From assembly GCA_049287205.1 (NCBI GenBank), contig JBAQFJ010000001.1, positions 511,041-575,040 of the forward strand: a DNA stretch of 64,000 nucleotides. Reading direction: 5' to 3'. This DNA comes from Microgenomates group bacterium (GTDB lineage Bacteria > Patescibacteriota > Microgenomatia > UBA10105 > UBA927). The notes below the pieces were generated by a model. The model was given only the letters and a program-made list of their open reading frames with translations, was not told the DNA's origin and searched no databases. The translations under genes and the position numbers were made by a program. Below are positions 39,101-62,251 of the stretch, one piece after another (position 1 is the stretch's first letter; every line of letters begins with the position of its first letter).

Positions 39101-39103
39101 AGG

Positions 39104-40738: not shown

Positions 40739-43713
40739 AATGAATTTGTATGTTTTCTTTGTATGTATACAATCAATCCAACGCCACCCAATAAACCCAA
40801 CATTGTTACCATGCCACCGATATAAAACGTCCGTTGCGGTTCATAAACAATGGAAAACGTATGTGTGTCCTGTAGCTCCAATACCCAAGCGTTTGCATAC
40901 CCGTTTGCCCGAATATGATATTCTTCAGGAATTGCTTTTCCGTCAACTAACAATTTCCATCGGACATCAAACTGCTCATTAAACACTATTGTTGAAGGAC
41001 TTGAGGACGCCATTATTTCACCTGAATAGCTACTTGGATGTATCTCAGTAAAACGTACTTGACCACTTGATTTTGTACTCGGTTTCTCCCTGACAAAATA
41101 TATATTTTCAATTGTTGGAAGCAGGGCGTCTTGATTAAGAACAGTAATTTTATGGTATCCCTCAGTTAGACTAACTGTGCCGGATGAAGTCGATTGTGAG
41201 TCTATAAAAACCCTATGTAACGGTATCGCGCTATGAACCGTATATGCATCGGTTTGCGGTATTTCTACCTCAATTTTATACGTGGTTGTATCTGTCGTCA
41301 GCCAAGATTCCGCGCGAAGTGTTTTTTCAAACGCAACTATATTTTTACTGACTTCCTTTTGATTTTCATCAATTCCCATGGTGGCAACATAATGCTTTTG
41401 TGCTTGTACAAACGACAGGATTCGTATCACATAATCATTTTTTATTTTGCCGGTCAAACTACTGATTTCCTCAATCACAGTTTTCATCAGAACTGTATAG
41501 TCTTCAAAATTAACGGCGGACTCCGACAGATTATTTTGAAGAGTATTCCATTTCGCCTTCTGCAAATTCGTGTTTGCAATCATTATTTGCGCATCTATTG
41601 TTGACTGTATCGATGTTGCTGTTTCCAAGGAAGTTTTTTCGAAGTATTCTTTTCGTTTGAACAATATCGATCCTGGGGCATACGTTAAATCCGTTATTGA
41701 AAGACCGTTATCAATAGCATCTCGTTCCTTTTGGCTACATGCCACACATGTTGCCTGCGTCACATCCATCGTTGAGACAGTATCCAGTAGTGTAGCGGCA
41801 GAGGCGTGAATAGTATCAACGACTATTGTTTCCTTATTTTGTGCAAACGCCATAAAGACATCTGCGTGTGACACATCTTTTCCGTGCGCAGTAATGATAT
41901 CCGATCCAATATATATTTTGGATACGGCGACGGACGCCGGAATTTTGTACAAAGTCCATAAACCGATATTCTTAACCTCAACAAATGACCACGAAAGAAA
42001 ATTCTTCTTTTGCCAAACGATTGACCGATTATCCTGATACTCATTTTTATATACTGCATCATCTCTCCATAATATATATGTGATGCCTAACGTTTCAGCG
42101 ATCCGTATAAACCGATCTCTATCGTTTGTTCGAAGTGACTCATATAAACGAGTTATCATTTGGTTTGCGTCATTGTCATTTGCAATGAGCCCTCGTGACA
42201 TAACGCTTCGCGGTAATATATCCAGACTAAAATACCCCCATGACGATGTATCGAGAAGCACGTTGTAATATCCCGAATCTAAGGCGGGTAAAATCGCAAT
42301 CCGTGCATCCTTCTCAGTTGTTGTATTAACGAATTGCCCCATATCGTTCACATAGGAAGGGACAGACACGCGAGTACTAAACGGATTCATAAACGTAAAT
42401 ACATCCTTAGTAAAAAATGGATAATGATACGCAAGTATATATCCAAGGAGCACACTGCTTATCAGAAGTGCAAGAGTTTTTGACCGTATAGAAAGAATAC
42501 ATCGATGTAACGTATATCCCGATAACATAATGATGGGAATCCACACCATAGGCGCAAACTTATAAAAACTTGATCTAAAAATCGCGAACCCTGGTATATG
42601 CCGCATAGCCCATGTAAAAAGAAAGCCAAACGGCGGGTGTGAACCAGCGGCCAACACCAACCCAACCAACAACACAAGGAACAAACCAATGAGAAGCTGA
42701 TAGTTCTTTTCGACTTTCTGGGTAACCATTCCTCTGACAAAAAATATGGAGCCTACAAATGTAATGAACGCTGGGACGAAACTCAGAAAAACAAGTAAAG
42801 GATTTGTCAAAAAAGGCTTCGCAAACAAATTATTCGTATTATCATACCAATCCGGTATTCCCTGTAATCGAAGCAGATTTATAAAACTTGCATTCTTACT
42901 GATTCCCTGTTCCCATGCAATCAGCCCTTCCATTCCCCCGTTGTCACCAAGAGCCTGCGCATAGGTAGTCAGATACAAATGCATTTGAGGAAAAATCCAG
43001 TAGAAATTCAACACAATAAATGAGAGCAAGAATGCGCAACCAACAGTGAGACATCGTTTTATTTCGGTTCGTCCATTTTTTCTTATCGCGTATATTGAAA
43101 ACCAGACATAACAAATGAATAACGTCATTACAGTCGATCCATACAAGGGAGGCGATCCGCCGCCATTAAGTAAAAAATATAAGACTCCAAAATAGAGCGC
43201 GTTTATACCAATCGACTTTCTTTGTATGATTGACCGATAGAAAAGTGCAATTGCTATAGGCAAGGCCGCAAAGAGTGAAAACTTGGCACGTTCTCCAATA
43301 AACCACCCTTGAAAAACATAGAAGTTGAACATGGCAAATATGGATGACCATAAACGCAGGAAACGATATTTTTGATCAGAAAATAGAATATACACACCCA
43401 GCCACATACCAAACCCAAGGGTAAAAAACCAACCTATTAGGGCGAGCCGTTGTCCCCATAGCACTGACCCCGTAATTGCAGAAAAAAGCGTTTCAGGAAA
43501 TTGTGTTATAAGAAACGCTTTATATAACGACCAATCCTTTCCTATATTAATATAGGGATTCCAGGAATAAAAAATATTTTTCAGATGTTCAAGAGGAGCC
43601 AATCGGAAACCGCTATCGTGCCCCAACAACATCTGACCATCACGAAACCACAAGAGAGGAACTAATGAAAGGAGAAGTAGGAGTACGATCTCTCCCCAGA
43701 CTTTTTTTCTCAT
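40735..43713 (-). CDS. Very large polytopic membrane protein (992 aa), YfhO/AftD-like GT-C or polymerase candidate with a long C-terminal extracytoplasmic domain
   Basis: About 14 N-terminal TM helices; conserved PPFG...IPGF.IFR..FYKF block; roughly 550-aa soluble region; final TM helix (GGMVTMLGLLGGVGLIVYI) near the C-terminus. Confidence 0.4.
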   Translation of the reverse strand: MRKKVWGEIVLLLLLSLVPLLWFRDGQMLLGHDSGFRLAPLEHLKNIFYSWNPYINIGKDWSLYKAFLITQFPETLFSAITGSVLWGQRLALIGWFFTLGFGMWLGVYILFSDQKYRFLRLWSSIFAMFNFYVFQGWFIGERAKFSLFAALPIAIALFYRSIIQRKSIGINALYFGVLYFLLNGGGSPPLYGSTVMTLFICYVWFSIYAIRKNGRTEIKRCLTVGCAFLLSFIVLNFYWIFPQMHLYLTTYAQALGDNGGMEGLIAWEQGISKNASFINLLRLQGIPDWYDNTNNLFAKPFLTNPLLVFLSFVPAFITFVGSIFFVRGMVTQKVEKNYQLLIGLFLVLLVGLVLAAGSHPPFGFLFTWAMRHIPGFAIFRSSFYKFAPMVWIPIIMLSGYTLHRCILSIRSKTLALLISSVLLGYILAYHYPFFTKDVFTFMNPFSTRVSVPSYVNDMGQFVNTTTEKDARIAILPALDSGYYNVLLDTSSWGYFSLDILPRSVMSRGLIANDNDANQMITRLYESLRTNDRDRFIRIAETLGITYILWRDDAVYKNEYQDNRSIVWQKKNFLSWSFVEVKNIGLWTLYKIPASVAVSKIYIGSDIITAHGKDVSHADVFMAFAQNKETIVVDTIHASAATLLDTVSTMDVTQATCVACSQKERDAIDNGLSITDLTYAPGSILFKRKEYFEKTSLETATSIQSTIDAQIMIANTNLQKAKWNTLQNNLSESAVNFEDYTVLMKTVIEEISSLTGKIKNDYVIRILSFVQAQKHYVATMGIDENQKEVSKNIVAFEKTLRAESWLTTDTTTYKIEVEIPQTDAYTVHSAIPLHRVFIDSQSTSSGTVSLTEGYHKITVLNQDALLPTIENIYFVREKPSTKSSGQVRFTEIHPSSYSGEIMASSSPSTIVFNEQFDVRWKLLVDGKAIPEEYHIRANGYANAWVLELQDTHTFSIVYEPQRTFYIGGMVTMLGLLGGVGLIVYIQRKHTNSL

Positions 43714-43728
43714 ACTAGTATTATACCG

Positions 43729-44391
43729 TTATCTCCAAGCAACGAGAAGCGTTGTCGACACGAATCCTGGAACAGAGATATAAAAAGGTAACGGAATATT
43801 TAACGACCGATGAATTCTCCACAATAGCGGGAAGAATGACATGGGTTTACACACAATGTGCGTAAATCCCGCTTTCATAAACATCTTTTTCCATTCTTCA
43901 GGATATTTCACATTCAGGTGTGTCGGATCCGCTAAATTTTTCTGAAACGGAAATGGCGATGAGCCAATAAACTTTCCTCCAGGCTTTAATGCTTTATATA
44001 TATTTGACACTCCTTCAGATGGGTACGGCAGATGCTCTAGAACCTCAAAGCCAATGATGTAATCGTATTTAATTTTTGTGGGAATACTTTTTTGTATATC
44101 ACAGTAGATGAACGGAATATTGCCAATGAAGGTATGAGCATTCTTAATCATCATTTTTGAAACATCGCTACCGGTAATATCAGCGCCTTGGTTTTTTAAC
44201 AGATAACATACTCCCCCAGCCCCGCTACCTATCTCAATAACTTTCTTGCCCGCAAATTGAATATTGTATGTTGCCTGAATGTACGTTATCCAACCCCAAT
44301 ACCAGTTGGCGTATTTCAACACATCATGTTTCGTCCATGATGTGGCAATCGGTCGAAGATAGGTTTGAAAATATTGATCCCACTTTGACAT
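43729..44391 (-). CDS. Class I SAM-dependent methyltransferase
   Basis: VIEIGSGAGGVCYLL (motif I), ...GSDVS (post-I acidic), IIGFEVLEHLPYP, LKPGGKFIGSSP. Confidence 0.7.
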   Translation of the reverse strand: MSKWDQYFQTYLRPIATSWTKHDVLKYANWYWGWITYIQATYNIQFAGKKVIEIGSGAGGVCYLLKNQGADITGSDVSKMMIKNAHTFIGNIPFIYCDIQKSIPTKIKYDYIIGFEVLEHLPYPSEGVSNIYKALKPGGKFIGSSPFPFQKNLADPTHLNVKYPEEWKKMFMKAGFTHIVCKPMSFFPLLWRIHRSLNIPLPFYISVPGFVSTTLLVAWR

Positions 44392-44393
44392 AA

Positions 44394-45638
44394 TTATGTA
44401 TATTGAAGAAAAAATTTACTACATGTTCGTTTCATGTAGTTAATCATTTCAACGGTAATTCCCGGCCAGACCCCAACCCAAAATCCGTTATTCATAATGA
44501 TATCTGAATTATTCAGCTTGCCCACAATCCTGATATCTTTTCTGTTCATATAGGCGGGATGTTTCAATAAATTCCCTGCAAAAAGAGGACGCGTCCCAAT
44601 GTTATTATTTTCCAAAAATTCCACAAGTTGAGATTTAGTAAATGGGGCATCCTTTTTAACAATCAGCATAAATCCAAACCAACAGGGATCAGCTTCTTTC
44701 TCCCATGTTGGCAAAATAAAATATTTTTCATACTTTTTAAAAAAGGCGTATAATTTTTTAAAATTATCCTTACGCTTTTTGATAAATGTCGGAAGTTTTT
44801 TGAGTTGCGCGACCCCAATGGCCGCCTGAAAATCTGTAAGTTTCAGATTATATCCAATCTGTGAATACGTATATTTATGGTCATATCCATACGGTAAATC
44901 ACCTAATTGCCATGTAAAGCGTTTACCGCACGTGTTATCTTTTCCGGTATCACACCAGCAATCACGTCCCCAATCTCGAAATTGTCGAATAGCACGATGA
45001 ATAAGCGAATTATCAGTCACTATTGCACCACCCTCACCCATTGTTATCTGATGAGCAGGATAAAAGGAAAATGTGGAAATGTGTCCAAAAGTACCAGCCA
45101 ATTTCCCATTATATGTACCTCCTAAAGCATCGCAACAATCCTCAATCAACCAAAGATCATATTTTTTCACTAAACCAAGAATTTCATCCATTGGCATAAC
45201 ATTCCCTAATGCATGAGCCAACATGATAGCTTTGGTCTTTTTGGAAATCGCTTTTTCAATAGATTGAGCAGTTACATTACGTGATCCAAGATCAACATCG
45301 ATAAATACAGGGACAAGTTTATTTTGAATAATTGGATTCACTGTTGTCGGAAAAGCGCACGCAGTTGTAATCACTTCGTCGCCTGGTTGTAAAGCCTTTT
45401 TCCCAAACACAGATGAAGTGAGTGCCGTTAACGCAACAAGATTAGCTGAAGAACCTGAATTGAAGAGCGTGACACATTTTCTTCCTAAATACGAAGAAAA
45501 ATTCTTTTCAAAAATTTTAGAAAATTCCCCTTCAGTCCACCAACCATCACGTGCGACTTTAATAGCATTATTTATCTCTGCTTGATCGAATACTTTACCT
45601 GAAGCCGGTATATACTTAATCTTTGTTACATTTTTCAT
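44394..45638 (-). CDS. ddhC: CDP-6-deoxy-D-xylo-4-hexulose-3-dehydrase (E1; RfbH/DdhC)
   Basis: DGWWTEGEF, SGSSANLVALTALTS, LWLIEDCCDALGG, FSFYPAHQITMGEGG (His in place of the aminotransferase Lys), FRDWGRDCWCDTGKDNTCGKRF and GYDHKYTYS. Cys169-X57-Cys227-X1-Cys229-X7-Cys237 reproduces the E1 [2Fe-2S] motif. Confidence 0.9.
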   Translation of the reverse strand: MKNVTKIKYIPASGKVFDQAEINNAIKVARDGWWTEGEFSKIFEKNFSSYLGRKCVTLFNSGSSANLVALTALTSSVFGKKALQPGDEVITTACAFPTTVNPIIQNKLVPVFIDVDLGSRNVTAQSIEKAISKKTKAIMLAHALGNVMPMDEILGLVKKYDLWLIEDCCDALGGTYNGKLAGTFGHISTFSFYPAHQITMGEGGAIVTDNSLIHRAIRQFRDWGRDCWCDTGKDNTCGKRFTWQLGDLPYGYDHKYTYSQIGYNLKLTDFQAAIGVAQLKKLPTFIKKRKDNFKKLYAFFKKYEKYFILPTWEKEADPCWFGFMLIVKKDAPFTKSQLVEFLENNNIGTRPLFAGNLLKHPAYMNRKDIRIVGKLNNSDIIMNNGFWVGVWPGITVEMINYMKRTCSKFFLQYT

Positions 45639-45675: not shown

Positions 45676-46563
45676 TTAAATTAATGATAAAATTTCAGTT
45701 CTTTTTATAAGCGGGAGTCTTCCCACATACCAATCTGCCAAAACTCTAATTGTCTTATCAAAATTTGTATATTGAAAATTAGGAATTTCTTTATTCAACC
45801 TTTTTATTGAGCATGTATATTCGAAATTCGATTCTTTATCTAGTACCGTAATCTTTTGTGGTTTATTCATAACAAACAAAATGCGCTTTGCCATGGTTAA
45901 AAAATCCCTAGGCTTACCAGATCCGATATTATATGTAGAATACTTTGGTTTGTTGTTAATAAAGTGCTCAAGTATTCTAACAAAATCATTTATATATAAA
46001 TAATCAAATTTCGCGTTGTGACGTATAGTTATAGGAATATCTAATAGGGCTTGGCAAATTATATTTGATACAAATCTGAAACGATATTCTTCATATTTTC
46101 CATAAACCCCAAAAAGTCTTAAATTATATATAGGTAATTTTGTTTCTTCTATAAAGGAGGCAACAGTATATTTATATAAGCCAAAATCATCTGAAGGCAT
46201 TCGTTTCCCAAAGTCTTTTTCTTCAGCTTTATGAATGGATGCTTGTTTACCAAATTCAGCACCAGATCCAAAATAGATCATACGTTTAAAATATTGTTTA
46301 CATCTTACAAAATTTAAAAAAATACGAATATTTGATGAAATTATATTTGTACACTCAGCCTCACTTTTTTTACCCCCAATATTGGCCGCGTGAATAATGA
46401 TATCTGAAGGATGATTTCTTAAACATTTTTCTACTTCATTTTCATCTAATAAATTTAATTCTTGATGGGTAGGAGCATAAATATGATATCTAGATGCTAA
46501 CTGCTCAACAATATTATGTCCGATAAAACCACTTCCACCAGTAAGAAATATTGTTTTTGACAT
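45676..46563 (-). CDS. NAD(P)-dependent sugar epimerase/reductase (CDP-abequose/paratose-synthase- or YerF-like 4-ketoreductase candidate)
   Basis: MSKTIFLTGGSGFIGHNIVEQL Rossmann start; 295 aa extended SDR; adjacent to ddhC and the TPP enzyme. Confidence 0.6.
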   Translation of the reverse strand: MSKTIFLTGGSGFIGHNIVEQLASRYHIYAPTHQELNLLDENEVEKCLRNHPSDIIIHAANIGGKKSEAECTNIISSNIRIFLNFVRCKQYFKRMIYFGSGAEFGKQASIHKAEEKDFGKRMPSDDFGLYKYTVASFIEETKLPIYNLRLFGVYGKYEEYRFRFVSNIICQALLDIPITIRHNAKFDYLYINDFVRILEHFINNKPKYSTYNIGSGKPRDFLTMAKRILFVMNKPQKITVLDKESNFEYTCSIKRLNKEIPNFQYTNFDKTIRVLADWYVGRLPLIKRTEILSLI

Positions 46564-46583: not shown

Positions 46584-48407
46584 TTAACCCTCTTTAAGAG
46601 GTTCAATAATCATATTCTCATGAAATTCATCTCTGGGCAAAAACGGGTACATATCTTCTAATGGTTTCGATATAATCTTTCCATTAGAGTCTCTCATAGA
46701 ACTTACTTTTGGAAGAAATGGCTGATGCGGATCTAAAATGACCTCAATCAACATTGGTCCTTTTCTTGACAAAATAGTAAAAATTTTTTTCTTCAACTCA
46801 TTATGAGTTTGAATTCTATCTGTCGCAATTCCGTATGCTTTAGCTATCTTAATAAAATCAGGACATGACACTCCACTTTTAGGGTCACTTCCAACCAAGA
46901 AGCCTTCAAAATAAGCCGATTGAGTATGTTTAATACTTAGATATCCTTGATTGTTAAAAACAAATAACTTAATAGGTAAATTATGAAAAACCATTGTTTG
47001 CAGCTCTTGAAGATTCATTTCTAATCCTCCATCTCCGTGAACACAAATCACTTGTTTATTTAAATCAGCAAAACATGAACCAATTGCTGCAGGTAAACCG
47101 TATCCCATCGGTGCACAACCACCATTAGTAAAATATCTTTGACCCCTCTTCAACTTCAATGCTTGAGAGGAACTATAGAAAGTCGCACCTTGATCAGTGA
47201 TAACAGTATCATTTGGAGAAAGATAATCCGACAATATATCAAAAAAATAATATGAATTAACATACCTTTTTGATTTATCTTCTTTCATCTCAACTAAAGG
47301 AAATCGATCTCTCCAAGTTTTACATCTGTCAACCCATACGTTAGTTTGTAGACGTTGGCGACCCAATTCTCTACCCAATCTTTGAAAAAAATCTTTTAGA
47401 TCCGCATGTATTACAACGTCTGTGTTAATAAGTGGATGTTTTAATTGGGCTTCGTCAATATCAACAACTATTTTCTTTGCTTCTCTTGCAAATAATTTAG
47501 TTTCGTATCCAACCACCGTCAAAGGCAAACTGGATCCTAATGAAAGCACCAAATCGGCATTCTGCACAGCGAAATTCGCGGCACGTTGCCCATTAATACC
47601 TATACTACCAACACGGAGAGGGTGCTTATAATAAATAAGGTCAAAACCATTTTTTGTCGTGACTACTGGAATTTGATATTTCTCTATAAATTTTAAAAAC
47701 TTATCTTCTGAATGTGAGAGTCTAATGCCATTTCCGGCAATTATAATTGGTCTGTCGGATTTCTTTAATAATTTAACCAAAATTTTTATTTTTTTCGTCT
47801 CATTTTTATGACCAGCTTTAATACCCACTATTTCCTTTTGTGGAAAATATCTAGGCAACATTCTTTCATCTATCATCTTTGCTTGAATATCCAACGGTAT
47901 GGCTATCCAAACTGGACCTGGACGACCAGTTTTAGCTAAAAATACAGACTTTTCTAAATGATATCTAATGGTTGTTTCATCTGTTATTGTCACAGCATAT
48001 TTCGTAATACTCTCGACTAATTTCGTGATATCAACTTCCTGCACGCCTCTTTGTCTTCTCCCAGTATTTCCGATAAGTAATTTTGAATTAGCTTGTCCTG
48101 ATATAAATATAACTGGAATCGAATCATCCCAAGAACACATAACCCCAGTTATAGTGTTTGTTCCACCAGGACCCGTTGTTACCATGGCTACTCCAAGATT
48201 ATTGGTTGTCCGTTGATATCCCTCTGCAGATATTGCACACGCCTGTTCGTGATGATTACATATATACTTAATATCTTTACTTCTTCCCAAAGAATCAAAT
48301 AAATACATGCCACCTCCACCTGATACCATAAATATATGTTTAACGCCTTGTTGAGCAATAAACTTCATAACGTAATCAGATAAGCGAATTAGTTTTTTTC
48401 CATTCAT
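46584..48407 (-). CDS. Thiamine-diphosphate-dependent enzyme, acetolactate-synthase-like (YerE-like branched-chain sugar synthase candidate)
   Basis: 607 aa; TPP N-domain (GVKHIFMVSGGGGMY...GVAMVTTGPGGTN), central domain, TPP C-domain with the GDG...N Mg-binding motif (ICVHGDGGLEMNLQELQT). Confidence 0.8.
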   Translation of the reverse strand: MNGKKLIRLSDYVMKFIAQQGVKHIFMVSGGGGMYLFDSLGRSKDIKYICNHHEQACAISAEGYQRTTNNLGVAMVTTGPGGTNTITGVMCSWDDSIPVIFISGQANSKLLIGNTGRRQRGVQEVDITKLVESITKYAVTITDETTIRYHLEKSVFLAKTGRPGPVWIAIPLDIQAKMIDERMLPRYFPQKEIVGIKAGHKNETKKIKILVKLLKKSDRPIIIAGNGIRLSHSEDKFLKFIEKYQIPVVTTKNGFDLIYYKHPLRVGSIGINGQRAANFAVQNADLVLSLGSSLPLTVVGYETKLFAREAKKIVVDIDEAQLKHPLINTDVVIHADLKDFFQRLGRELGRQRLQTNVWVDRCKTWRDRFPLVEMKEDKSKRYVNSYYFFDILSDYLSPNDTVITDQGATFYSSSQALKLKRGQRYFTNGGCAPMGYGLPAAIGSCFADLNKQVICVHGDGGLEMNLQELQTMVFHNLPIKLFVFNNQGYLSIKHTQSAYFEGFLVGSDPKSGVSCPDFIKIAKAYGIATDRIQTHNELKKKIFTILSRKGPMLIEVILDPHQPFLPKVSSMRDSNGKIISKPLEDMYPFLPRDEFHENMIIEPLKEG

Positions 48408-50134
48408 AATTTATTATTTATTTTTAATAAATTCTTATAAAATTTTATGTGCGATGTCGGTGTAATTATAAATAAAGGTATACCTTTAACAACTAAATAA
48501 TCCGATAATAAATCCAATTGAACACTAAAATTTTCGTACTTTTTTGATGACACTTCTTTGTCTTCCTTTAATCCATCTTCATTATAGAAGTATTGAATTT
48601 CCTTTGTCTTTTTATCTTTATAACCATCCATTCCTACAACTAAAATTTCTTTCGCGCCCATTTGAATCGCAGTTAATATCGCGGCAACACCCACGTTCAA
48701 GTAAGCATGATTCTGCACTATGTCACTTATCAACGAATGTTCTGACCTATCAACCAATGCAATCTCAATATATTCTCGTTTCCCGATAAAATTTTCATTT
48801 ACTAAGTTCTTTCCAAAATATGAAGGTATTAATAAAATACTTCGATTATCTACTGTTGAAGAATATCTAAGAAATCTTTTCTTGCTTACGAATATATGAT
48901 AATTTGGTTTATATAGACCCTCTAGATAATTACAACCTATAGTTACAAGCTTTTCTTTTTTTATTAATTTGTTGATTGTTTTTTTATATTTTTTTATAGT
49001 AGGGCCATTGGCTATAATTAAAAATCTTTTATTTTTGTGTTTATTTGTAAAAACAACATCTTTCAAATGAAATGCATCTTTCGATGGAAACAGTTTAACT
49101 TGTTCCTCAATTTCTTCAACCACTGTTTTAGCGCTATCACGGGAAGGAACATAGAGGCGTTGTTGTAATGATGTGTCTAATTTATTTTTATTAAATGAAA
49201 TTGGACAGTCTTGTTTAATATGATCCAAAACATTCCATATCTCTTCGATAGTAAAATTTCCAGTTTTAATCAATTCATCAACATAATAGGGATGAATATT
49301 TCTACCTCCACTCAGTAAAGTTTTTAATGAGTATCCCCATTTTAATTCATCTTTTAATTTTAGATAAAAACGATCAATGACATCTAGATATGGAACTACG
49401 TTGTATTTTACATCACCCTTAGTTTGTAAATAATTTAGCAATATTTCGATCGGGAGATTTCCCGCCCCTCTACCCATACCGTATATCGATGCATCAACAT
49501 AACCTACACCATCGTTTATGGCTTGCAAGGCATTAGCGAAAGCCATTTGTAAATTGTTATGAGAATGAAATCCAATATTTTTAAAACCAATATGTTTCAA
49601 TTTTCTAATATACTTTGAAATATCTGATGGAATATAAGAACCAAAACTATCTGCGAAGTATACCGCCTCCAAAAATTTTCTATTCTTCCAATTTTCAATT
49701 ATATTCATCTCTAAATTTTTCCACTCTGATGAAGCCATCAGTTGCAAAAATACTAAGTATCCTTTATCAAACAGTTTTTCAATAAGATTGATTGCTTGCT
49801 TAGCTTCATATGGATATGCAGCGACTCTTATCCCCACAAAAGGCGTCAACTCTTTTCTGCATTTAGGAATTTTATAATTTGTATACTTACCCGCATCTAT
49901 CATGCAAAGTAATTTACAGTCCGTTAACGATTTAAATAAGGAATTAATATATTCTTCACGACAATATCCAAATTCTCCTAATCCAATTATGTTATTATCA
50001 TTTTTGTAACCAATTTCAAAATAATCGACTTGGGCATTTGAAGCAGCAAAATAGGAAGCCTTTACCAATGACTCATCAAAATGCCATTTGTTTATATGAC
50101 CACCATCTCTTATTGAACAATCGATTATCTTCAT
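48404..50134 (-). CDS. Fusion protein: DmpG-type class II pyruvate aldolase (HMGL-like TIM barrel) + GT42/Maf(DUF115)-like nucleotide-sugar transferase-like domain
   Basis: N-terminal IIDCSIRDGGH (D-x-x-x-RDG-xH), GFHSHNNLQMAFANALQAINDGVGYVDASIYGMGRGAGNLPIEILL (near-identical to the DmpG metal-site block). C-terminal LIIANGPTIKKY, VTIGCNYL and NVGVAAILTAIQMGAKEILVVGMDGY parallel the Cst-II/Maf motifs (GNGPS, RCNQFY, GYKEIYLSGIDFY). Confidence 0.6.
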   Translation of the reverse strand: MKIIDCSIRDGGHINKWHFDESLVKASYFAASNAQVDYFEIGYKNDNNIIGLGEFGYCREEYINSLFKSLTDCKLLCMIDAGKYTNYKIPKCRKELTPFVGIRVAAYPYEAKQAINLIEKLFDKGYLVFLQLMASSEWKNLEMNIIENWKNRKFLEAVYFADSFGSYIPSDISKYIRKLKHIGFKNIGFHSHNNLQMAFANALQAINDGVGYVDASIYGMGRGAGNLPIEILLNYLQTKGDVKYNVVPYLDVIDRFYLKLKDELKWGYSLKTLLSGGRNIHPYYVDELIKTGNFTIEEIWNVLDHIKQDCPISFNKNKLDTSLQQRLYVPSRDSAKTVVEEIEEQVKLFPSKDAFHLKDVVFTNKHKNKRFLIIANGPTIKKYKKTINKLIKKEKLVTIGCNYLEGLYKPNYHIFVSKKRFLRYSSTVDNRSILLIPSYFGKNLVNENFIGKREYIEIALVDRSEHSLISDIVQNHAYLNVGVAAILTAIQMGAKEILVVGMDGYKDKKTKEIQYFYNEDGLKEDKEVSSKKYENFSVQLDLLSDYLVVKGIPLFIITPTSHIKFYKNLLKINNKL

Positions 50135-50145
50135 TTTGCAATACC

Positions 50146-50901
50146 CTAACGTATATTTAGTTCATCATATGAATGAATAATATAATTACTGTATTTTGAT
50201 AACTCTTGAAACGATGTTTGACCCAAAGTAACACCTATTCCTGCTTTTAATCCTCCTTTAGCTGCCATAATCAAATCCATAGGAGCATCACCTAAACAAA
50301 TTGATTTATCTGCTGTTGATCCTAACATATCTAAAGCAATTTTTACATGCACCCCTGAAGCTTTCGGCAAAACTGATTGCTCTCTGCCAATATATGCGTC
50401 GATATAACTATTAAGCTTTAATAAGCTCATGCATTTCTTTGCGTTTACCACACTATCAGAAGTCACAATGGCTATTTTTATGTTCCTACTCTTTAATTTC
50501 TTCATTAAATTCTTAATTCCTGGCAATATTACAACGTAATTATCCATTTTATTTAAAAAATCTTTATGAACTTGTTCAAATAGGTTTTGAATTTCAATTT
50601 TAGATATTGTGATATTGTTATTCTTTAACTTTCTGAATAATATATCTATAATTTCTTCCCTAGATAGAATACCTACAGGACCAAATTCTAATAATTTTTG
50701 CTTAGACAAGTCGTATCCCATCCATAAACATATTTTATTAAAGAATTGTGAATTTAATTTGTAATCTTTAACGAATGCGCTACTTCGCATTTTAATAATC
50801 TCACCCCAATAAATGTGTAAGTCTTGTATAGTTCCATCTTTATCAAACAAAACAGTCTCAACGTCCTTAATACACCAATTGAGAGCACTAAAATTTATCA
50901 T
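50146..50901 (-). CDS. HAD-superfamily phosphatase (subfamily IA-like)
   Basis: Motif I LFDKDGTI, motif II IVTSD, motif IV LGDAPMD. Confidence 0.75.
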   Translation of the reverse strand: MINFSALNWCIKDVETVLFDKDGTIQDLHIYWGEIIKMRSSAFVKDYKLNSQFFNKICLWMGYDLSKQKLLEFGPVGILSREEIIDILFRKLKNNNITISKIEIQNLFEQVHKDFLNKMDNYVVILPGIKNLMKKLKSRNIKIAIVTSDSVVNAKKCMSLLKLNSYIDAYIGREQSVLPKASGVHVKIALDMLGSTADKSICLGDAPMDLIMAAKGGLKAGIGVTLGQTSFQELSKYSNYIIHSYDELNIR

Positions 50902-51938
50902 ACTAAGTACTTCAAGGTTTCATTAACTAATTCCTTTGCCTTTTTATAAGCTGAATTGAAGATAGTTTTGTTTTCAAAAAAATCTTCGTTATTTAATTCC
51001 TCTTTAATAATTTTTCGTGCAAACGATCCCAAAGACACACCGTTTGCTTGAACTTCAAATAATTTCGCCAATTTTGACGTCTTACTATTTGTTCCACCCG
51101 ACATTAGCACCCAAACAGGTAGTCTTGCCTTTTGTACGATATCAGCTGTAGCGATTGTTTGAAGTGTGGTGTTGTTGTTGTCATTTGAACCGCTCATTGG
51201 AGATCCGTCTGCCTGAACAATTGTCGTAAAATCCTTTCTGTCTTTAATAAATAATTTGATCCTGTTAATAAGTTGTTTATCGCTTAAATGAGATCTGTCT
51301 AAACAAACACTCAATATTCCCGGAAAAGCTTTGTTCATTGTTCTCCAAATGCTATATGATTCGTCATCATCTTCTGTAATAGCATGTAGTTCAATTGAAG
51401 AAACGCCTAAATCAATTAATGGTGGTAAAATTTTACGTAAATTTCTTTCTTTATACTGAAAATCAATGGCTCCAAATTTACAAACTTTTGCGCACGCGTT
51501 GCACCCTATACATTTGCTATCAATTACTAGGTATTTTTTTATACCTTTTGAATCAACTGCATTTTGAATAGCATTTTGTAAACATACAACTGAACAGGCA
51601 CCGCACGCGCGACATTTTTCCAAATTAATTCTAGCTTTCATTGCATGTGGATCCCCATTAACTCCCACGCTTACACAATAAAAATATTCCTTCCTTTTAT
51701 TCTTTGGAACTACTCGTTCGATTCCTTTTTTAGCTGCTAACACTGATTCTTTGTTTGGTGATAAATCAAAATAATGTACCCCTGCTTTTGCGTAAACAGC
51801 AACTAACCTCTCGATCATTTTATAATCCTCGTTACCAGCGCCACAAATTAGCTTGAAGCATTTCTTTTGATTGAGCAAATCTGATAATTTCATATTGTAT
51901 TTAATATTGAATAGCATGTATATGTTATCAAACAGCAT
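50898..51938 (-). CDS. TIM-barrel-like protein with an embedded 2x[4Fe-4S] ferredoxin domain
   Basis: Two CxxCxxCxxxC motifs (CRACGACSVVC and CIGCNACAKVC) at residues ~108-150. The flanks (LICGAGNEDY...VAVYAKAGVHYFDLS and C-terminal VWVLMSGGTNS...ANGVSLGS) resemble a phosphate-binding (beta/alpha)8 barrel. Confidence 0.55.
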   Translation of the reverse strand: MLFDNIYMLFNIKYNMKLSDLLNQKKCFKLICGAGNEDYKMIERLVAVYAKAGVHYFDLSPNKESVLAAKKGIERVVPKNKRKEYFYCVSVGVNGDPHAMKARINLEKCRACGACSVVCLQNAIQNAVDSKGIKKYLVIDSKCIGCNACAKVCKFGAIDFQYKERNLRKILPPLIDLGVSSIELHAITEDDDESYSIWRTMNKAFPGILSVCLDRSHLSDKQLINRIKLFIKDRKDFTTIVQADGSPMSGSNDNNNTTLQTIATADIVQKARLPVWVLMSGGTNSKTSKLAKLFEVQANGVSLGSFARKIIKEELNNEDFFENKTIFNSAYKKAKELVNETLKYLV

Positions 51939-51979: not shown

Positions 51980-52930
51980 TTATTCCCTCTTAAAATATTC
52001 CTGATACCATCGAAAGACCTGCACTATCTTTTTATTAATATTATATTTCGATTTCCAACCTAATCTTCGTATTTTACGATCCTCAAGATGCTGATACGGT
52101 ATTTCATTTTTTGCTGTATTTTGTATGTCATACGCAATATGCTTTTTTAACGTTTTTTCTGCTTTTTTTATTAATTCCAAAACAGAACACGTGTCATCAG
52201 AAGAAAAATTATATGCTTCGCCTGTTATATCTTTTTTTATTTCTATAAGCTTCATATATCCTAGAGCAACGTCTTTTACATAAAGATAATCGCGAATGTA
52301 AGTACCGTCACTTCGAAGTTGTAATGGCTTACCTACAATAATGGATTGGCAGATACCTGGAATAATTCTGTCAAAATGCATATCTCCTTCGCCGTACACA
52401 TTCCCAAATCGTGTAATAACGACAGGCAATCCATAAGTTTTAAAAAACGTCTGTGCTATCAGGTCCGCACATGACTTGGATACGTCATATGGATGATCTC
52501 CTTGAAGAGGTGATGTTTCTGTATAAGCGACCTTCGTCTTTCCATATGCCTTATCTGACGAAGCAATGAGAATACGTTTGATATTTTTATCTTTCCTACA
52601 TGCTTCTAATATATTTACTGTTCCCATAATATTTGTTTCAAATGCATCATAGGGATTATCGTATGCATCTTGAACAATTGGTTGAGCTGCTAAATGTATT
52701 ACATAGGTGGGATGAATTAAGGAAAAAAATGCAGTTACCTGCTTTTTCTTTCTAATATCTACATTTCGATAAGATACTTTCTTCTCAAGGTGTTTTTCAA
52801 AAAAATAGGATTTACAGGACTTCTGAATATCGATGACAACCACCTTAAATTTTTTCTTCAAAAGAAGTTCAACAAGATGTGCACCTATAAATCCTGCTCC
52901 GCCTGTAACAACAACTGTTTCTTTTACCAT
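51980..52930 (-). CDS. NAD-dependent sugar dehydratase/epimerase, CDP-glucose 4,6-dehydratase candidate
   Basis: VVVTGGAGFIGAHL, YDVSKSCADL (YxxxK); immediately downstream of ddhA. Start set at Met10 (MVKET), 1 nt after the ddhA stop; ORF-track start is 52957. Confidence 0.55.
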   Translation of the reverse strand: MVKETVVVTGGAGFIGAHLVELLLKKKFKVVVIDIQKSCKSYFFEKHLEKKVSYRNVDIRKKKQVTAFFSLIHPTYVIHLAAQPIVQDAYDNPYDAFETNIMGTVNILEACRKDKNIKRILIASSDKAYGKTKVAYTETSPLQGDHPYDVSKSCADLIAQTFFKTYGLPVVITRFGNVYGEGDMHFDRIIPGICQSIIVGKPLQLRSDGTYIRDYLYVKDVALGYMKLIEIKKDITGEAYNFSSDDTCSVLELIKKAEKTLKKHIAYDIQNTAKNEIPYQHLEDRKIRRLGWKSKYNINKKIVQVFRWYQEYFKRE

Positions 52931-53700
52931 ACTTTCCACTCGGGGTTTTCTTTCCACTCAGTATTTAAGCGTTCAACATCTGCGTATGTATCCATGCATT
53001 GCCAATAGCCTTTATGGATGTACATAGAAAGCTGTTTTTTTTCAATAAGCCGCTTTAATGCCGGATGCTCCAATTCATTTAGCCGTAAATAATTAAAAAA
53101 AGCATATTTACAAACCATAAATCCCCCATTGACCCAATCTTGAAGAACTGGTTTCTCCACAAATGCGGTTACTCGATTATGTGTGTCTGCGCTCATTAAT
53201 CCGTATTTACTTCTTGGATATACACCTGTAACTGTTCCTATTGTTTTGTTTTTTTTATGAAAAGCGACTAATTTTTTAATATCGACATTTGCAACACCGT
53301 CACCATATGTAACCATAAAACTTTCATTTTTTGGAATGTATTTCTTCACTCGAATTATTCGTTCTCCCGGTAATGTGTCAAGTCCGGTATCAACGAAAGT
53401 TATTTTAAAATCGTCAACAAGTTTTTCATTATTCTTATCAGTGTGGATTTTTGCATTACCTGACTTTGTCGAGAGTGTAAAATCGTGTTGAAGATATTTT
53501 TGATTAAGAAAATAATCCTTTATGTAATCGCCTTTATATCCCAAAGCAATAACAAATTCATTAAAACCATAATGGCTATATATTTTCATAATATGCCATA
53601 GTATGGGCTTATTACCAATCAATACCATTGGTTTTGGTTTAAACTCAGTCTCTTCTTTAAGACGATACCCAATACCACCGCAAAGAATTACCGTTTTCAT
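52924..53700 (-). CDS. ddhA: Glucose-1-phosphate cytidylyltransferase
   Basis: MKTVILCGGIGYRLKEETEFKPKPMVLIGNKPILWHIMKIYSHYGFNEFVIALGYKGDYIKDYF closely follows the RfbF/DdhA consensus. Confidence 0.85.
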   Translation of the reverse strand: MKTVILCGGIGYRLKEETEFKPKPMVLIGNKPILWHIMKIYSHYGFNEFVIALGYKGDYIKDYFLNQKYLQHDFTLSTKSGNAKIHTDKNNEKLVDDFKITFVDTGLDTLPGERIIRVKKYIPKNESFMVTYGDGVANVDIKKLVAFHKKNKTIGTVTGVYPRSKYGLMSADTHNRVTAFVEKPVLQDWVNGGFMVCKYAFFNYLRLNELEHPALKRLIEKKQLSMYIHKGYWQCMDTYADVERLNTEWKENPEWKVW

Positions 53701-53763: not shown

Positions 53764-54879
53764 TCAATCGCGAAGAGCTACAAAATTTGTATCATAATAT
53801 TTATCAAACTTATATTGGTTGACCAGCTTATTAATTCCCATTTGATACCATGAATAATTTTGCTTTATTTTATTTATGTGATATTCCAGAGAATGCTTTA
53901 TGATGACTTCACCACAGTGAAGCGAAGCAATGTCCTTTGCAATTAGGGACGTATCGGTCATAATAACCGGTAAACCAAATTCTAAATACGTTTTTATTTT
54001 CCCTGGATCTGTATACCAGGTAAATTGTGATCTATCACTCTTATACAACGCTAATCCAATAAAACAATCTTCTAATTCCTTTCCAAGCTGATCTTCCGGG
54101 ACAAACGAATTTGGAAACCAAACCCTATCTTCAAGTTTATCTCGTTTTATTATTGACTGTAGAGTCTTTACATATGCATGTTCACACACACCAATCAATT
54201 TTAGCTTATATTGTGGATGCTCATGTATGTATTTCAATATTACTTCAATATTTTGACTGGGCTTCATAACGCCAACAAAAGCTAATGTCTGTTGATTTAT
54301 TGTTTTTTTCTTTACATATTGTGGTTTCATTCCCCATGCTACCGTCCGCCTCTTCACGCTACGACTGAGATAGCCTTTATTCATACATCTATTGATACGG
54401 TCAGATAGATAATAGGTTGTTGCAATCCTATCATGATAATATTTCTTTAATTTCTCATATAGACGTATTTTCCAGTCATTCCCCGGAAAATAATCACCTA
54501 TCCAATAGGCAAATCGAATACTCAAAAAAATTCGTTGAAAGAACATAAAGAAAAAAAATATCGGATGACCTGCAAAAACAGTCCATGTACTTTTTCTATC
54601 ACGTAACTTCAATAAAACGTACCAGTACGTCATAAACCAATAGACGTAATAGAGAAATACACTGGTAGAGTTTCGTGTGTGAATAACGTTTATACGTGTA
54701 CCGTTTTCATATATATGAATCTCATTCGTATGCCCCTGCATACGCGGCATAGTATAAATAATTATCAGATTCAGTGTTCTCTGGATAAAATATTCATCAA
54801 CGTGTCCAACACTCTGGAAGCTTGCGGATAAAATAATATTGTTGTACAAATTAATTTTTCTTCGATACGTATGGCGCAT
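53764..54879 (-). CDS. GT-B fold glycosyltransferase, member of a three-gene paralog family in this locus
   Basis: 371 aa with an N-terminal TM region; C-domain motif TDPGKIKTYLEFGLPVIMTD shared with 55979..57136 (SDPSKIKKYIEVGLPVITTD) and 61091..62251 (TEPGKVKRYLACGIPVMMTD). Confidence 0.55.
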   Translation of the reverse strand: MRHTYRRKINLYNNIILSASFQSVGHVDEYFIQRTLNLIIIYTMPRMQGHTNEIHIYENGTRINVIHTRNSTSVFLYYVYWFMTYWYVLLKLRDRKSTWTVFAGHPIFFFFMFFQRIFLSIRFAYWIGDYFPGNDWKIRLYEKLKKYYHDRIATTYYLSDRINRCMNKGYLSRSVKRRTVAWGMKPQYVKKKTINQQTLAFVGVMKPSQNIEVILKYIHEHPQYKLKLIGVCEHAYVKTLQSIIKRDKLEDRVWFPNSFVPEDQLGKELEDCFIGLALYKSDRSQFTWYTDPGKIKTYLEFGLPVIMTDTSLIAKDIASLHCGEVIIKHSLEYHINKIKQNYSWYQMGINKLVNQYKFDKYYDTNFVALRD

Positions 54880-59894: not shown

Positions 59895-61073
59895 TTAACT
59901 GGTAAAAATATTTATAATTGTTTTGATTTCTTTTTTTGTTAATTCGGGATTATTCCCAAAATAGAGCCCTTGATCATGCGCAATTGATGCATTTGTTTTC
60001 TTTTTGCTTTTTCCCACTTTAACATACTTTTTGTAAAACGGCTGTTTAGTCATATCACCGCCAACTATTGGTCTTATTTCGACTACTCCGTCACATTTTT
60101 TAACTAATGCATCTCGTATAGCTTTTGTTCTACATACCACTGGTACGGCAAAATTTGATACCACATCTATATGGTCGTATCTCATTGGAAAGTATCTGTC
60201 TGTCATACTATAAATCGCTTTTGCAAACATCATAAAATTCTCTTCTCTCTTTCTTACTATCTCCGGCAAATACTTCAACTGAATATTTCCTATGCAACCC
60301 TGTATTTCCATAGTTCGAAGATTATATCCAAGATCGTAGAACGTATACCGTGAATAAAAAGTCTCGTTTACGTGATTTTTAATACGAATCTTTAGCTGTC
60401 TATCTTCAGTTAAATTTCTATCCCATCCGTGTGCTCGAACAAATTGAAGCATAGTGTCCAACTCCTGATTATCAGTGCACACAGCTCCTCCTTCTATTGT
60501 GGACATATGATGTCCAACGTAGAAAGAAAATGTGCTTGCTAACCCAAAATTACCTAGTTTTTTACCCTTATATACAGTCCCCAATGATTCACAGTTATCT
60601 TCTATCAACAATATATTATTCTTTTTACAAATTCTTGCTATCTCATCTATTTCGTCACAGAATCCTAAAAGATTGGTCAAAAAAAGCATCTTTATACGCT
60701 TTTTATTTATTACCCCTTTTAACGTTCTGGGTGACACATTTAATGTATCCAATTCACAATCAATAGGAACCGGAGTAAGACCTAATTCAATAAGAGGCAT
60801 TACGTTTGTTGACCATGTCAATGCGGAAAAACCGATGGCATCACCTTTTTTTAACTTCCCCAGGTTTAAAAGTGCCTGAATTATCGCTAAATCTGCGCTG
60901 CTCCCACTATTTAAATAAATACAATGTTTTCGATTCTGATATTCTGCAAAATTATTTTCAAATTTTCTACATTCATTTCCTATACTTAACTGTTTTGCAT
61001 TAGTAATAAACGCACAAAGTTTTTTCTTTGTGTCAACCTCATTCATAAACGTTGATTTAATAAGCTTAATCAT
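59895..61073 (-). CDS. DegT-family PLP/PMP-dependent sugar 3-dehydratase-like enzyme (ColD/E1-type, active-site Lys replaced by His)
   Basis: NSGSSADLAIIQALLNL, ILLIEDNCESLG, STFSFYVGHHMSTIEGGAVCTDN (His at the Lys position); no Cys cluster, 392 aa, i.e. ColD-like rather than E1-like. Confidence 0.65.
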   Translation of the reverse strand: MIKLIKSTFMNEVDTKKKLCAFITNAKQLSIGNECRKFENNFAEYQNRKHCIYLNSGSSADLAIIQALLNLGKLKKGDAIGFSALTWSTNVMPLIELGLTPVPIDCELDTLNVSPRTLKGVINKKRIKMLFLTNLLGFCDEIDEIARICKKNNILLIEDNCESLGTVYKGKKLGNFGLASTFSFYVGHHMSTIEGGAVCTDNQELDTMLQFVRAHGWDRNLTEDRQLKIRIKNHVNETFYSRYTFYDLGYNLRTMEIQGCIGNIQLKYLPEIVRKREENFMMFAKAIYSMTDRYFPMRYDHIDVVSNFAVPVVCRTKAIRDALVKKCDGVVEIRPIVGGDMTKQPFYKKYVKVGKSKKKTNASIAHDQGLYFGNNPELTKKEIKTIINIFTS

Positions 61074-61090
61074 AATGACGCCATTATAAG

Positions 61091-62251
61091 CTATTTCTCT
61101 ATACTTTCAAATGCCTTTCTGAATATGGTATTCCATTGAAAATCTTTTGCATACTGAAAAGCATTTTTTCTATAAAGATTCATTAGTTTCTCATTTCCGA
61201 AAAAATTAATTATTGTACTCGTTATTGTTTTCAGGTCGTTTGAGATAACGAACCCACATGTACCTTGAATACCTTTTGCAATTGGCGAAACATCTGTCAT
61301 CATTACGGGTATTCCGCACGCTAAATATCGTTTAACCTTCCCGGGCTCTGTGGTAAACACTAAGGGATGACTTGTGTCATAACACGCAACTCCTAATGAA
61401 GCGTGTGCAATTCTTTGTTCCATTTCTCTCGGGTCTTCAATAAAACCTAAAAAATTAACTACGTTAATTACTTTAAGTTTTTTTGCCAACGTTTTAAGTT
61501 GTATTTTATCTTTTCCATCACCAATAATTGTAAATACTGTGTCCGGATAAATTTCACGAATTCTAGGCAAGGCCTTAATCACCATATCAACCCCCTGAAA
61601 ACCCGCTAATGTCCCCATATATACAATTTCATGCTTGTTGCATAATTTATATGGAACAATAATATCGAGACGATGACGAATACCATTCGGTACTACTATT
61701 TGATTACGAAATACGTGATTCCATTTAACATTTCTTTTATCAATCATTGTAGCTGCGTAATTCCAAGTACTATTGGAGTATTGTGCGCATATTTTATCGA
61801 GTAAATGGTAAACAAAGTTCAACATACCATTACTAAATCTCATAATGGCGTAATCAATTACGTAGTATATTGATACGTTTGTCTTATGTAGAAGCATCAA
61901 TACTAAACCCATTAACGCGTTGAGATTACCGACACCAATATAAATATCAATGGCCTTTAACTTGGTAACTGACCAATAGAAAGAATAATAACTGTCAACC
62001 ACGTATGATAAAATTTCCGGTAATTTCAGCTTTAATGCTAAGTATTTATTTTGACATTTGCCTTTAATCCAGTGTTCACAATAGGATTGTGATAGAAAAT
62101 TTTTGGACACATATCTATTTACATGACCTATAAAAAGTAGCTCTGTAATCCCTTCTGAAATCATAAAGTCACGCAGCTCATGGGGAGGCCCATAAATAAA
62201 ATCATGACATACTATCACCGCTGATTTATATGGTATTGTATTCGATTTCAT
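61091..62251 (-). CDS. GT-B fold glycosyltransferase (paralog family)
   Basis: 386 aa; TTEPGKVKRYLACGIPVMMTDVSPIAKGI motif. Confidence 0.55.
   Translation of the reverse strand: MKSNTIPYKSAVIVCHDFIYGPPHELRDFMISEGITELLFIGHVNRYVSKNFLSQSYCEHWIKGKCQNKYLALKLKLPEILSYVVDSYYSFYWSVTKLKAIDIYIGVGNLNALMGLVLMLLHKTNVSIYYVIDYAIMRFSNGMLNFVYHLLDKICAQYSNSTWNYAATMIDKRNVKWNHVFRNQIVVPNGIRHRLDIIVPYKLCNKHEIVYMGTLAGFQGVDMVIKALPRIREIYPDTVFTIIGDGKDKIQLKTLAKKLKVINVVNFLGFIEDPREMEQRIAHASLGVACYDTSHPLVFTTEPGKVKRYLACGIPVMMTDVSPIAKGIQGTCGFVISNDLKTITSTIINFFGNEKLMNLYRKNAFQYAKDFQWNTIFRKAFESIEK

Follow-up and report, generated by a model that had tools for sequence, protein, structure and literature searches.

The subject of this work is a gene on the minus strand of a 64,000-nucleotide stretch of a Microgenomates group genome (GenBank GCA_049287205.1, contig JBAQFJ010000001.1, positions 511,041 to 575,040), which as a whole is called the window below. 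The gene (50898..51893) encodes an LdpA-family iron-sulfur (Fe-S) barrel protein of 331 amino acids followed by a stop codon and lies in a sugar-biosynthesis operon, next to a pyruvate aldolase. We propose that this LdpA-like protein may well be an Fe-S oxidoreductase that helps to supply the aldehyde or the 2-oxo-acid precursor of the sugar's side chain, and that it does not act on E1, the CDP-6-deoxy-4-hexulose 3-dehydrase of the same operon. With a chemistry that we infer, the proposal is given slightly less than an even chance. A role in the side-chain branch is suggested because the gene pairs with the aldolase, and not with E1, across genome loci. The original prediction for this stretch had instead regarded the protein as a candidate alternative redox partner of E1, in a module that lacks the E1 reductase E3 (AscD/DdhD).

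The longest form of the open reading frame (ORF) spans 50898-51938 (346 amino acids) and begins with an ATG further upstream, at 51938. From the alignment of homologues and from the NCBI record, the true start is Met16 (base 51893), which gives the form of 331 residues. That record, MFZ2025187.1 (331 amino acids, '4Fe-4S dicluster domain-containing protein', on a 1.02-Mb contig of a Microgenomates-group metagenome-assembled genome (MAG)), matches at 100%. The gene is real, and its product is an enzyme-like protein of barrel shape that has a ferredoxin with two clusters built into it. Its two CxxCxxCxxxC motifs, CRACGACSVVC (51582..51614) and CIGCNACAKVC (51480..51512), were found by motif scan with their first cysteines 34 residues apart, in agreement with the spacing of about 30 that had been predicted. 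No other match to this pattern occurs in the 108 ORF segments of at least 100 amino acids (27,974 amino acids) in the window. All eight motif cysteines are invariant across 21 homologues, and the stretch is matched by the Pfam models for dicluster ferredoxins (Fer4, 5.6e-11, 42.2 bits, cutoff 21.1; Fer4_7, 1.1e-10, 42.3 bits, cutoff 27). PDB sequence matches of the LdpA-like protein are confined to this stretch and lead to polyferredoxins and HdrA. Two motifs, eight conserved cysteines and Fer4-family scores above cutoff confirm the insert as a predicted 2x[4Fe-4S] dicluster ferredoxin domain.

An AlphaFold2 model from an alignment of homologues (predicted local distance difference test 89.6, predicted template modelling score 0.86) has eight beta/alpha units. 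The ferredoxin domain of about 66 residues (residues ~85-150 of the 331-residue form, 51444..51641) sits between strand 3 and helix 3, which in the model puts it on the barrel face where active sites of triosephosphate isomerase (TIM) barrels lie. It separates an N-terminal part with strands 1-3 (51642..51893; invariant K14, G18, A19, D43, S75, D81 and H83) from a C-terminal part with strands 4-8 that corresponds to LdpA_C (50901..51443; conserved E168, H170, Q227, D229, G266 and G289). The sequence SGGT (51090-51101) follows strand 7 and GVSLGS (51024-51041) follows strand 8; this position is the standard phosphate-binding site in many barrels and a putative one here. The architecture originally read from the letters, a barrel with an inserted dicluster ferredoxin and a C-terminal SGGT...NGVSLGS flank, is borne out by the motifs, the Fer4 matches and the AlphaFold2 model.

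An alignment reaching the distant family, including cyanobacterial LdpA at ~26% identity, shows 15 residues that are invariant family-wide, which are the seven N-terminal residues just named together with G38, H170, Q227, D229, G230, G266, G285 and G289. E168 is conserved in at least 90% of the aligned sequences. In the model the invariant residues lie at the ends of strands, close to them, or in the linker that leads from strand 3 into the ferredoxin domain, and this pattern looks like that of an enzyme pocket, not of a mere electron carrier. A third, catalytic cluster formed by C12, C17 and C197 was considered and dropped, as these cysteines are invariant in the non-cyanobacterial clade only and C12 and C17 lie at opposite ends of strand 1. 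Searches with barrel-only sequences in Pfam at E values up to 10 returned LdpA_C and DUF561 only, with no match to FMN barrels (DHODH, DPD, OYE, NMO), and an insert-free profile search of the PDB gave only an aldo-keto reductase 2E with a non-significant E value of 0.025.

Some family members lack the ferredoxin insert (P0140, P0141 and P0171), and others (P0142, P0152) retain one Cys motif only. Since such insert-less members occur in nature, the barrel exists as a stand-alone unit; one of them was modelled and forms a plain barrel. Structural matches were obtained by Foldseek with this member and with the full model. The best PDB matches of the insert-less barrel are all weak (TM score at most 0.63) and comprise sulfohexulose-1-phosphate aldolase, ribulose-5-phosphate epimerase (0.62), TIM (0.61), TrpA and class I fructose-bisphosphate aldolase. 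The nearest structural relatives of the modelled barrel, weak as the matches are, would be enzymes of phosphorylated sugars and trioses. Longer members of the family carry no informative fused domains, and no DNA-binding or signalling fusion was seen among the members examined.

The original prediction could not assign the protein to a known family. It is in fact assignable: LdpA_C (PF12617) matches residues 177-339 with 59.4 bits against a gathering cutoff of 22.2 (profile positions 5-183 of 184), and DUF561/Ycf23 (PF04481) matches in two partial stretches with 29.6 bits against a cutoff of 21.6. The NCBIfam model for the LdpA equivalog, NF045992, aligns over the full length (residues 22-336, profile 9-346 of 360) with 131.3 bits, against its cutoff of 450. 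The host is a Microgenomates MAG and not a cyanobacterium, and the ndhN-ldpA-R3H neighbourhood of LdpA is absent from the window. On these profile scores the protein is assigned to a non-cyanobacterial clade of the LdpA/DUF561 superfamily. The original prediction had also named a finding that would speak against it, a confident match to a family unrelated to sugar metabolism. Half of this has come about: a family was found with confidence, that of LdpA, but it is not one with a characterised biochemistry.

A profile search of 1.84 billion representatives yielded 188 clusters at E<1e-30, with bona fide cyanobacterial LdpA among them, and relatives of the gene occur in at least 493 non-photosynthetic species. 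In a neighbour-joining tree the non-cyanobacterial clade stands apart from cyanobacterial LdpA, and the copies from sugar clusters form two groups, one multi-phylum group that includes the window protein and one melainabacterial group, which would fit a horizontal spread of the module. Since 2003 LdpA has been counted among the clock input proteins. It is described as a redox-sensing Fe-S protein, with a mechanism called unknown as late as a 2026 review, and has been treated as unique to cyanobacteria (PMC5520375). That it senses the plastoquinone pool and acts on CikA/KaiA is known only from experimental work with Synechococcus. The literature searched contained nothing on the function of DUF561/Ycf23 or on LdpA-like proteins outside cyanobacteria. 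In two distant cyanobacteria (L163 and L164) the true ldpA gene is preceded by ndhN, at a distance of a few genes in L164, and directly followed by an R3H/AAA (Spore_III_AA-like) gene; its being linked to the gene of an NDH-1 subunit may be relevant to the redox role of LdpA.

The gene linkage was determined by counting neighbours in 80 genome loci around the closest LdpA-like genes, out of 493 species with a relative. An HMGL-type aldolase was present in 37 loci, a HAD gene in 20, a thiamine diphosphate (ThDP) enzyme in 15-16 and E1, within 10 kb, in 14, and every one of the 14 E1-bearing loci also has the aldolase. The HAD gene follows the LdpA-like gene in 20 of the 80 loci and the aldolase does so in 37, loci without sugar genes included. 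The right-hand neighbour is constant (HAD or aldolase), and the left-hand one varies between DdhB, E1, a metallo-beta-lactamase-fold protein and unrelated genes. The LdpA-like gene travels with the pyruvate aldolase rather than with E1. For five complete LdpA-HAD-aldolase-ThDP modules, the sequence within reach contains no ddh genes. In about 50 loci, from Gastranaerophilales and other Melainabacteria, the order is beta-lactamase-like, LdpA-like, (short HMGL aldolase), ClpB, and the LdpA-aldolase pair persists in such Melainabacteria loci although sugar genes are lacking. Within sugar clusters the pairing was found in bacteria of the candidate phyla radiation (CPR), Omnitrophota, Planctomycetota, Elusimicrobiota, Melainabacteria, Geobacter and Clostridium. 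Contig CAKUTH010000002.1 has two copies, one in a sugar cluster and one in the housekeeping setting (L011, L073). In Clostridium botulinum (L081) the genes for an NTP transferase, a short-chain dehydrogenase/reductase (SDR), the LdpA-like protein, the aldolase fusion, an HpcH aldolase, the ThDP enzyme, an SDR, E1 and Glyphos_transf lie between two flagellin genes, a placement which would imply flagellin glycosylation with an acyl-branched dideoxyhexose.

The E1 gene of the window (RfbH/DdhC; 44394..45638) does lie in the same module, as originally stated. Its product scores 635 bits on the NCBIfam RfbH model (cutoff 423), has His196 in place of the lysine that binds pyridoxal phosphate in aminotransferases and contains the motif C169-x57-C227-x-C229-x7-C237, and judged by these features it is a genuine E1. 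The Cys motif is reportedly that of the Yersinia E1. The absence of E3 nearby was also predicted correctly: the window holds no plant-type 2Fe-2S/FNR motif, and a BLAST comparison with an AscD sequence gave no match. The LdpA-like protein itself has no C-x4-C-x2-C-x~29-C motif, no FAD_binding_6 and no NAD_binding_1 domain.

A set of 80 metagenome loci around the closest relatives of the window E1 (53-71% identity) was compared. The histidine is present in 80 of 80 and the full Cys motif in 77 of 80. None of the 80 carries an LdpA-like gene and none an E3-like gene; about 35 have a ThDP enzyme, and one has a weak aldolase-like match (27% identity, opposite strand). Among the 23 loci with at least 5 kb on both flanks, DdhA and DdhB were each found in 20 and the ThDP enzyme in 17, with no LdpA-like gene, aldolase or E3. 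Because E3 is missing from all 80 loci and from all 23 well-flanked ones, E1 without a neighbouring E3 is the norm. A search for the E3 motif gave a single match, in L119, which turned out to be a radical S-adenosylmethionine (SAM) protein. In yersiniose-like loci, which have E1 and the ThDP enzyme and no aldolase, the LdpA-like gene is never present (0/80). Flagellin islands of C. butyricum carry RfbF-G-H, with or without a ThDP enzyme, and neither an LdpA-like gene nor E3. The E1 homologue SpnQ runs on general ferredoxin or flavodoxin systems (PMC8987622).

The aldolase offers a third point of comparison. At least 27 of the 59 long contigs with the closest aldolase-fusion homologues were taken, on account of their equal length, as the same contigs that carry the top LdpA-like matches. 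Seven further loci were inspected. Two of them (L165, L168) have the order LdpA-HAD-aldolase, and in four (L166, L167, L170, L171) a pair of adh_short genes separates the aldolase from the ThDP enzyme (in L170, from the contig end) and an LdpA-like gene is absent. In the remaining locus, L169, a B12-binding radical SAM protein occupies the variable position, again without an LdpA-like gene. The sister clusters L166, L167, L169, L170 and L171 replace the LdpA-like gene and the HpcH aldolase and keep the aldolase-fusion/ThDP core. L167, L169 and L171 carry a genuine E1 and no LdpA-like gene, and E1 therefore appears to work in homologous clusters without the LdpA-like protein. Two genes after E1, L171 encodes a 251-residue FNR-like reductase (L171:3430-4185; weak FAD_binding_6 and NAD_binding_1 matches, no Fer2/2Fe-2S domain), which is the only E3-like gene among the ~170 loci seen. 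By its distribution, the LdpA-like gene seems to behave as one of several interchangeable redox modules on an aldolase/ThDP core, and the variable modules suggest a family of branched sugars with different side chains.

The operon in the window runs from 53700 to 43729, with all genes tightly packed on the minus strand. It begins with a glucose-1-phosphate cytidylyltransferase-like (DdhA-like) gene (52924..53700; NCBIfam G1P_cyt_trans, 264 bits, just under the cutoff of 300) and a gene for an NDP-hexose 4,6-dehydratase-like (DdhB-like) SDR (51980..52957; NCBIfam CDP_4_6_dhtase, 192 bits, under the cutoff of 278; Pfam GDP_Man_Dehyd). The LdpA-like gene follows, and its stop overlaps by 4 bases with the start of a gene for a HAD-family phosphatase (50146..50901; Pfam HAD_2/Hydrolase). 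The next gene (48404..50134) encodes a DmpG-type pyruvate aldolase (HMGL-like) fused to an MptE-like/DUF115 domain, as judged from Pfam, PDB matches and motifs. The aldolase domain is most similar to the 'putative aldolase' 3dxi (2.6e-65), followed by the 4-hydroxy-2-oxovalerate aldolases DmpG and BphI (~1e-27; 1nvm, 1.5e-27), and it keeps the motifs RDGGH (RDGxH) and HSH (HxH). This fusion is a conserved architecture of ~575 residues with 1819 relatives; its C-terminal domain has no solved sequence relative and is possibly a kinase or nucleotide-binding domain. Again with an overlap of 4 bases, it is followed by a YerE-like ThDP-dependent carboligase (46584..48407), which has three TPP_enzyme domains and a GDG-x26-NN motif. 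Among solved structures its best relative is JanthE (8rph, 3e-141), which has been characterised as a ketone carboligase of the YerE-like type; the best acetolactate synthase reaches 2.3e-79. An SDR epimerase/reductase (45676..46563; Pfam Epimerase), which by comparison with published clusters (PMC9306805) is a candidate branch ketoreductase of the YerF/ErwF type, precedes E1, and a SAM-dependent methyltransferase (43729..44391; assigned by Pfam) ends the operon.

The clusters for erwiniose, caryophyllose and gastriose combine ddh genes with a YerE-like ThDP enzyme, a reductase, a BphI-like or HpcH-like pyruvate aldolase and an aldehyde supplier (Steitz et al. 2022, PMC9306805). The aldolase makes the 4-hydroxy-2-oxo acid donor, and in the erwiniose cluster the aldehyde is supplied by ErwJ, an NADH-dependent acetaldehyde dehydrogenase (PMC9306805). 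Genes of the ddhA/B/C type, the YerE-like ThDP enzyme, the reductase and the pyruvate aldolase are all present in this one locus, and by its gene content the operon is a biosynthetic cluster with an acyl-branched 3,6-dideoxyhexose as its predicted product. By analogy with the erwiniose scheme, the LdpA-like and HAD genes would occupy the place of the aldehyde supplier.

Several features of the surroundings were recorded as well. A promoter and terminator scan of 43-55 kb gave fewer sites than shuffled sequence and was not informative. The GC content falls from ~0.42 (1-44 kb) to 0.31-0.35 (44-64 kb), which makes the glycan island markedly more AT-rich than the remainder of the window. No Pfam match was obtained for five ORFs. 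Three large consecutive ones (617, 544 and 992 amino acids) lie at 37247-43713 on the minus strand, and the other two, on the same strand, flank the sugar operon (371 amino acids at 53764-54879, also without an NCBIfam match; 557 amino acids at 62251-63924). A second DegT-family gene (59895-61073, minus strand) reaches 218 bits on the RfbH model, of which the cutoff is 423.

In the scheme that we favour, the ferredoxin insert would conduct electrons one at a time between the pocket of the barrel and the low-potential electron pool of the cell. Together with the translationally coupled HAD protein, the LdpA-like protein would oxidise or reduce a small carbonyl precursor that is probably phosphorylated. 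This would deliver the aldehyde, or tailor the hydroxy-keto acid, which the DmpG-type aldolase would join to pyruvate. The ThDP enzyme of the YerE/JanthE type would then use the 4-hydroxy-2-oxo acid as donor and attach it to C4 of the CDP-3,6-dideoxy-4-keto-hexose made by DdhA, DdhB and E1, and the SDR and the methyltransferase would finish the sugar. The architecture, family, gene linkage and neighbours of the LdpA-like protein are shown by the data; what we infer is which substrate it uses, in which direction the electrons flow and whether the LdpA-like or the HAD step comes first.

Several observations weigh against this scheme. Gene adjacency is a correlation only, and the proposed chemistry has neither an experiment nor a close solved structure behind it. 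In Pfam scans of the barrel no signature of a hydride- or radical-handling cofactor, of a flavin family or of radical SAM was seen, and two all-cysteine [4Fe-4S] clusters hand over single electrons. About a quarter or more of the closest aldolase-fusion clusters do without the LdpA-like gene, and because they carry two adh_short genes or a B12-radical SAM protein instead, the LdpA-like protein would be optional and not part of the core. The HAD gene is not a strict partner either: sister clusters that lack an LdpA-like gene keep it, and in C. botulinum the cluster combines an LdpA-like gene with no HAD at all. Finally, in 10 loci E1 lies directly upstream of the LdpA-like gene, which would also be expected if the protein replaced E3, its two [4Fe-4S] clusters feeding the [2Fe-2S] cluster of E1 for the deoxygenation at C-3. 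We consider such a replacement unlikely. It is attractive in that the E1 is genuine and needs two one-electron transfers (PMC8987622), that no E3 was found in the window or in any LdpA-containing locus, and that L171, a sister cluster without the LdpA-like gene, has its FNR-like reductase close to E1. However, none of the 80 closest E1 relatives lies near an LdpA-like or E3-like gene, including the well-flanked loci of which 17 have the ThDP enzyme, so that the predicted co-occurrence with ddhC (E1) where ddhD (E3) is missing was not found. Two of the sister clusters, L167 and L169, combine E1 with the aldolase and the ThDP enzyme and have neither gene, as is the case for RfbF-G-H in the C. 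butyricum islands. Conversely, E1 is absent within 10 kb in 66 of the 80 LdpA-like loci, and the five LdpA-HAD-aldolase-ThDP modules have no ddh genes within reach. The host lineages are mostly ferredoxin-based anaerobes, which would suit a ferredoxin-like donor to E1, but general ferredoxin or flavodoxin suffices for SpnQ, and a pure electron carrier needs no conserved barrel active site. The role of redox partner to E1, as first suggested, is thus not upheld by the genome comparisons.

Two further roles were weighed against supply of the side-chain precursor. The protein might be a tailoring oxidoreductase that acts on the nucleotide sugar after or instead of attachment of the branch; reduction or deoxygenation of the acyl side chain on the CDP-sugar would be an example. 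It shares its operon with all the CDP-sugar enzymes, and the genes in the variable position of the sister clusters, two adh_short or a B12-radical SAM protein, are typical tailoring enzymes. Such a role also agrees with the earlier suggestion of a redox or radical step on the sugar, of which the redox part is compatible with precursor supply as well. The LdpA-like protein has no Radical_SAM Pfam match. Tailoring nevertheless seems improbable to us, given that the LdpA-aldolase pair occurs in Melainabacteria loci without nucleotide-sugar genes, that the nearest structures of the barrel handle small phosphorylated sugars and trioses instead of nucleotide sugars, and that the gene is located upstream of the aldolase and does not adjoin the ThDP enzyme or the SDR. 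More remote still is a redox sensor without catalytic activity, of the kind suggested for cyanobacterial LdpA, which would tune glycan synthesis to the cellular redox state. Homology to LdpA, for which the literature describes no role other than that of an Fe-S protein sensing redox, and the invariant residues held in common with it fit this view. We nonetheless regard it as very improbable: translational coupling in a biosynthetic operon and horizontal spread with the aldolase over many phyla are typical of enzymes, no family member examined carries a fused DNA-binding or signalling domain, and both the LdpA equivalog score (131 vs a cutoff of 450) and the missing ndhN-ldpA-R3H synteny set the protein apart from LdpA.

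A wider view of the family of the LdpA-like protein can also be sketched. In its ancestral form the LdpA superfamily might be an Fe-S enzyme of metabolism working with a DmpG-type pyruvate aldolase, as the acylating aldehyde dehydrogenases do, but linked to ferredoxin; cyanobacterial LdpA would then be a derived enzyme-turned-sensor, or still an enzyme whose metabolite feeds the clock. We regard this view as rather doubtful, but if it is true, the homologues from sugar clusters and Melainabacteria would be the first tractable biochemical handle on LdpA. A non-photosynthetic sister clade that keeps the putative active-site residues and is found beside a pyruvate aldolase in biosynthetic operons leads to a concrete enzymatic hypothesis, and a cultivable organism is available, as the cluster is part of a flagellin glycosylation island in Clostridium botulinum. 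In terms of glycobiology, an Fe-S module would be added to the recently proposed unifying scheme for acyl-branched sugars, and E1-type 3-dehydrases emerge as usually encoded without a nearby E3. Both the protein family and the cluster type are already known, and public annotation reads 'LdpA C-terminal domain-containing'; the pairing of an LdpA-family barrel with a DmpG-type aldolase in acyl-branched sugar clusters was not found in the literature searched. The main value of the finding lies in a biochemical entry point to the unexplained LdpA family.

Comparison with known systems shows partial resemblances. Like E3 (AscD/DdhD), the LdpA-like protein is an Fe-S protein encoded in ddh-type clusters that could pass single electrons to E1, whereas E3 consists of a [2Fe-2S] ferredoxin of the plant type joined to an FAD/NADH module that is FNR-like. 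The acylating aldehyde dehydrogenases ErwJ, BphJ and DmpF resemble it by position only, as oxidoreductases beside a DmpG-type/BphI aldolase in an acyl-branched cluster (PMC9306805); they have a Rossmann fold and use NAD and CoA, so that folds and cofactors are unrelated and the comparison is one of analogy. PreA of dihydropyrimidine dehydrogenase and IspG are likewise TIM barrels fed by [4Fe-4S] clusters, and the ferredoxin stretch matches the C-terminal dicluster domain of PreA (9.1e-10), but the window barrel gives no FMN-barrel or IspG signal and its ferredoxin is inserted after strand 3 and not appended. Ycf23 proteins share the DUF561 match of the barrel halves and lack the Fe-S domain. 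The closest counterpart is cyanobacterial LdpA (NF045992; PF12617 and PF25160), which aligns end to end and has the same N-terminal barrel part, two CxxCxxCxxxC motifs and LdpA_C, with K14, D43, S75, D81, H83, H170, Q227 and D229 shared and E168 in at least 90%. It differs in that the identity is ~26%, that the host here is a non-photosynthetic CPR bacterium, and that the gene here is part of a sugar operon in which it stands beside an aldolase.

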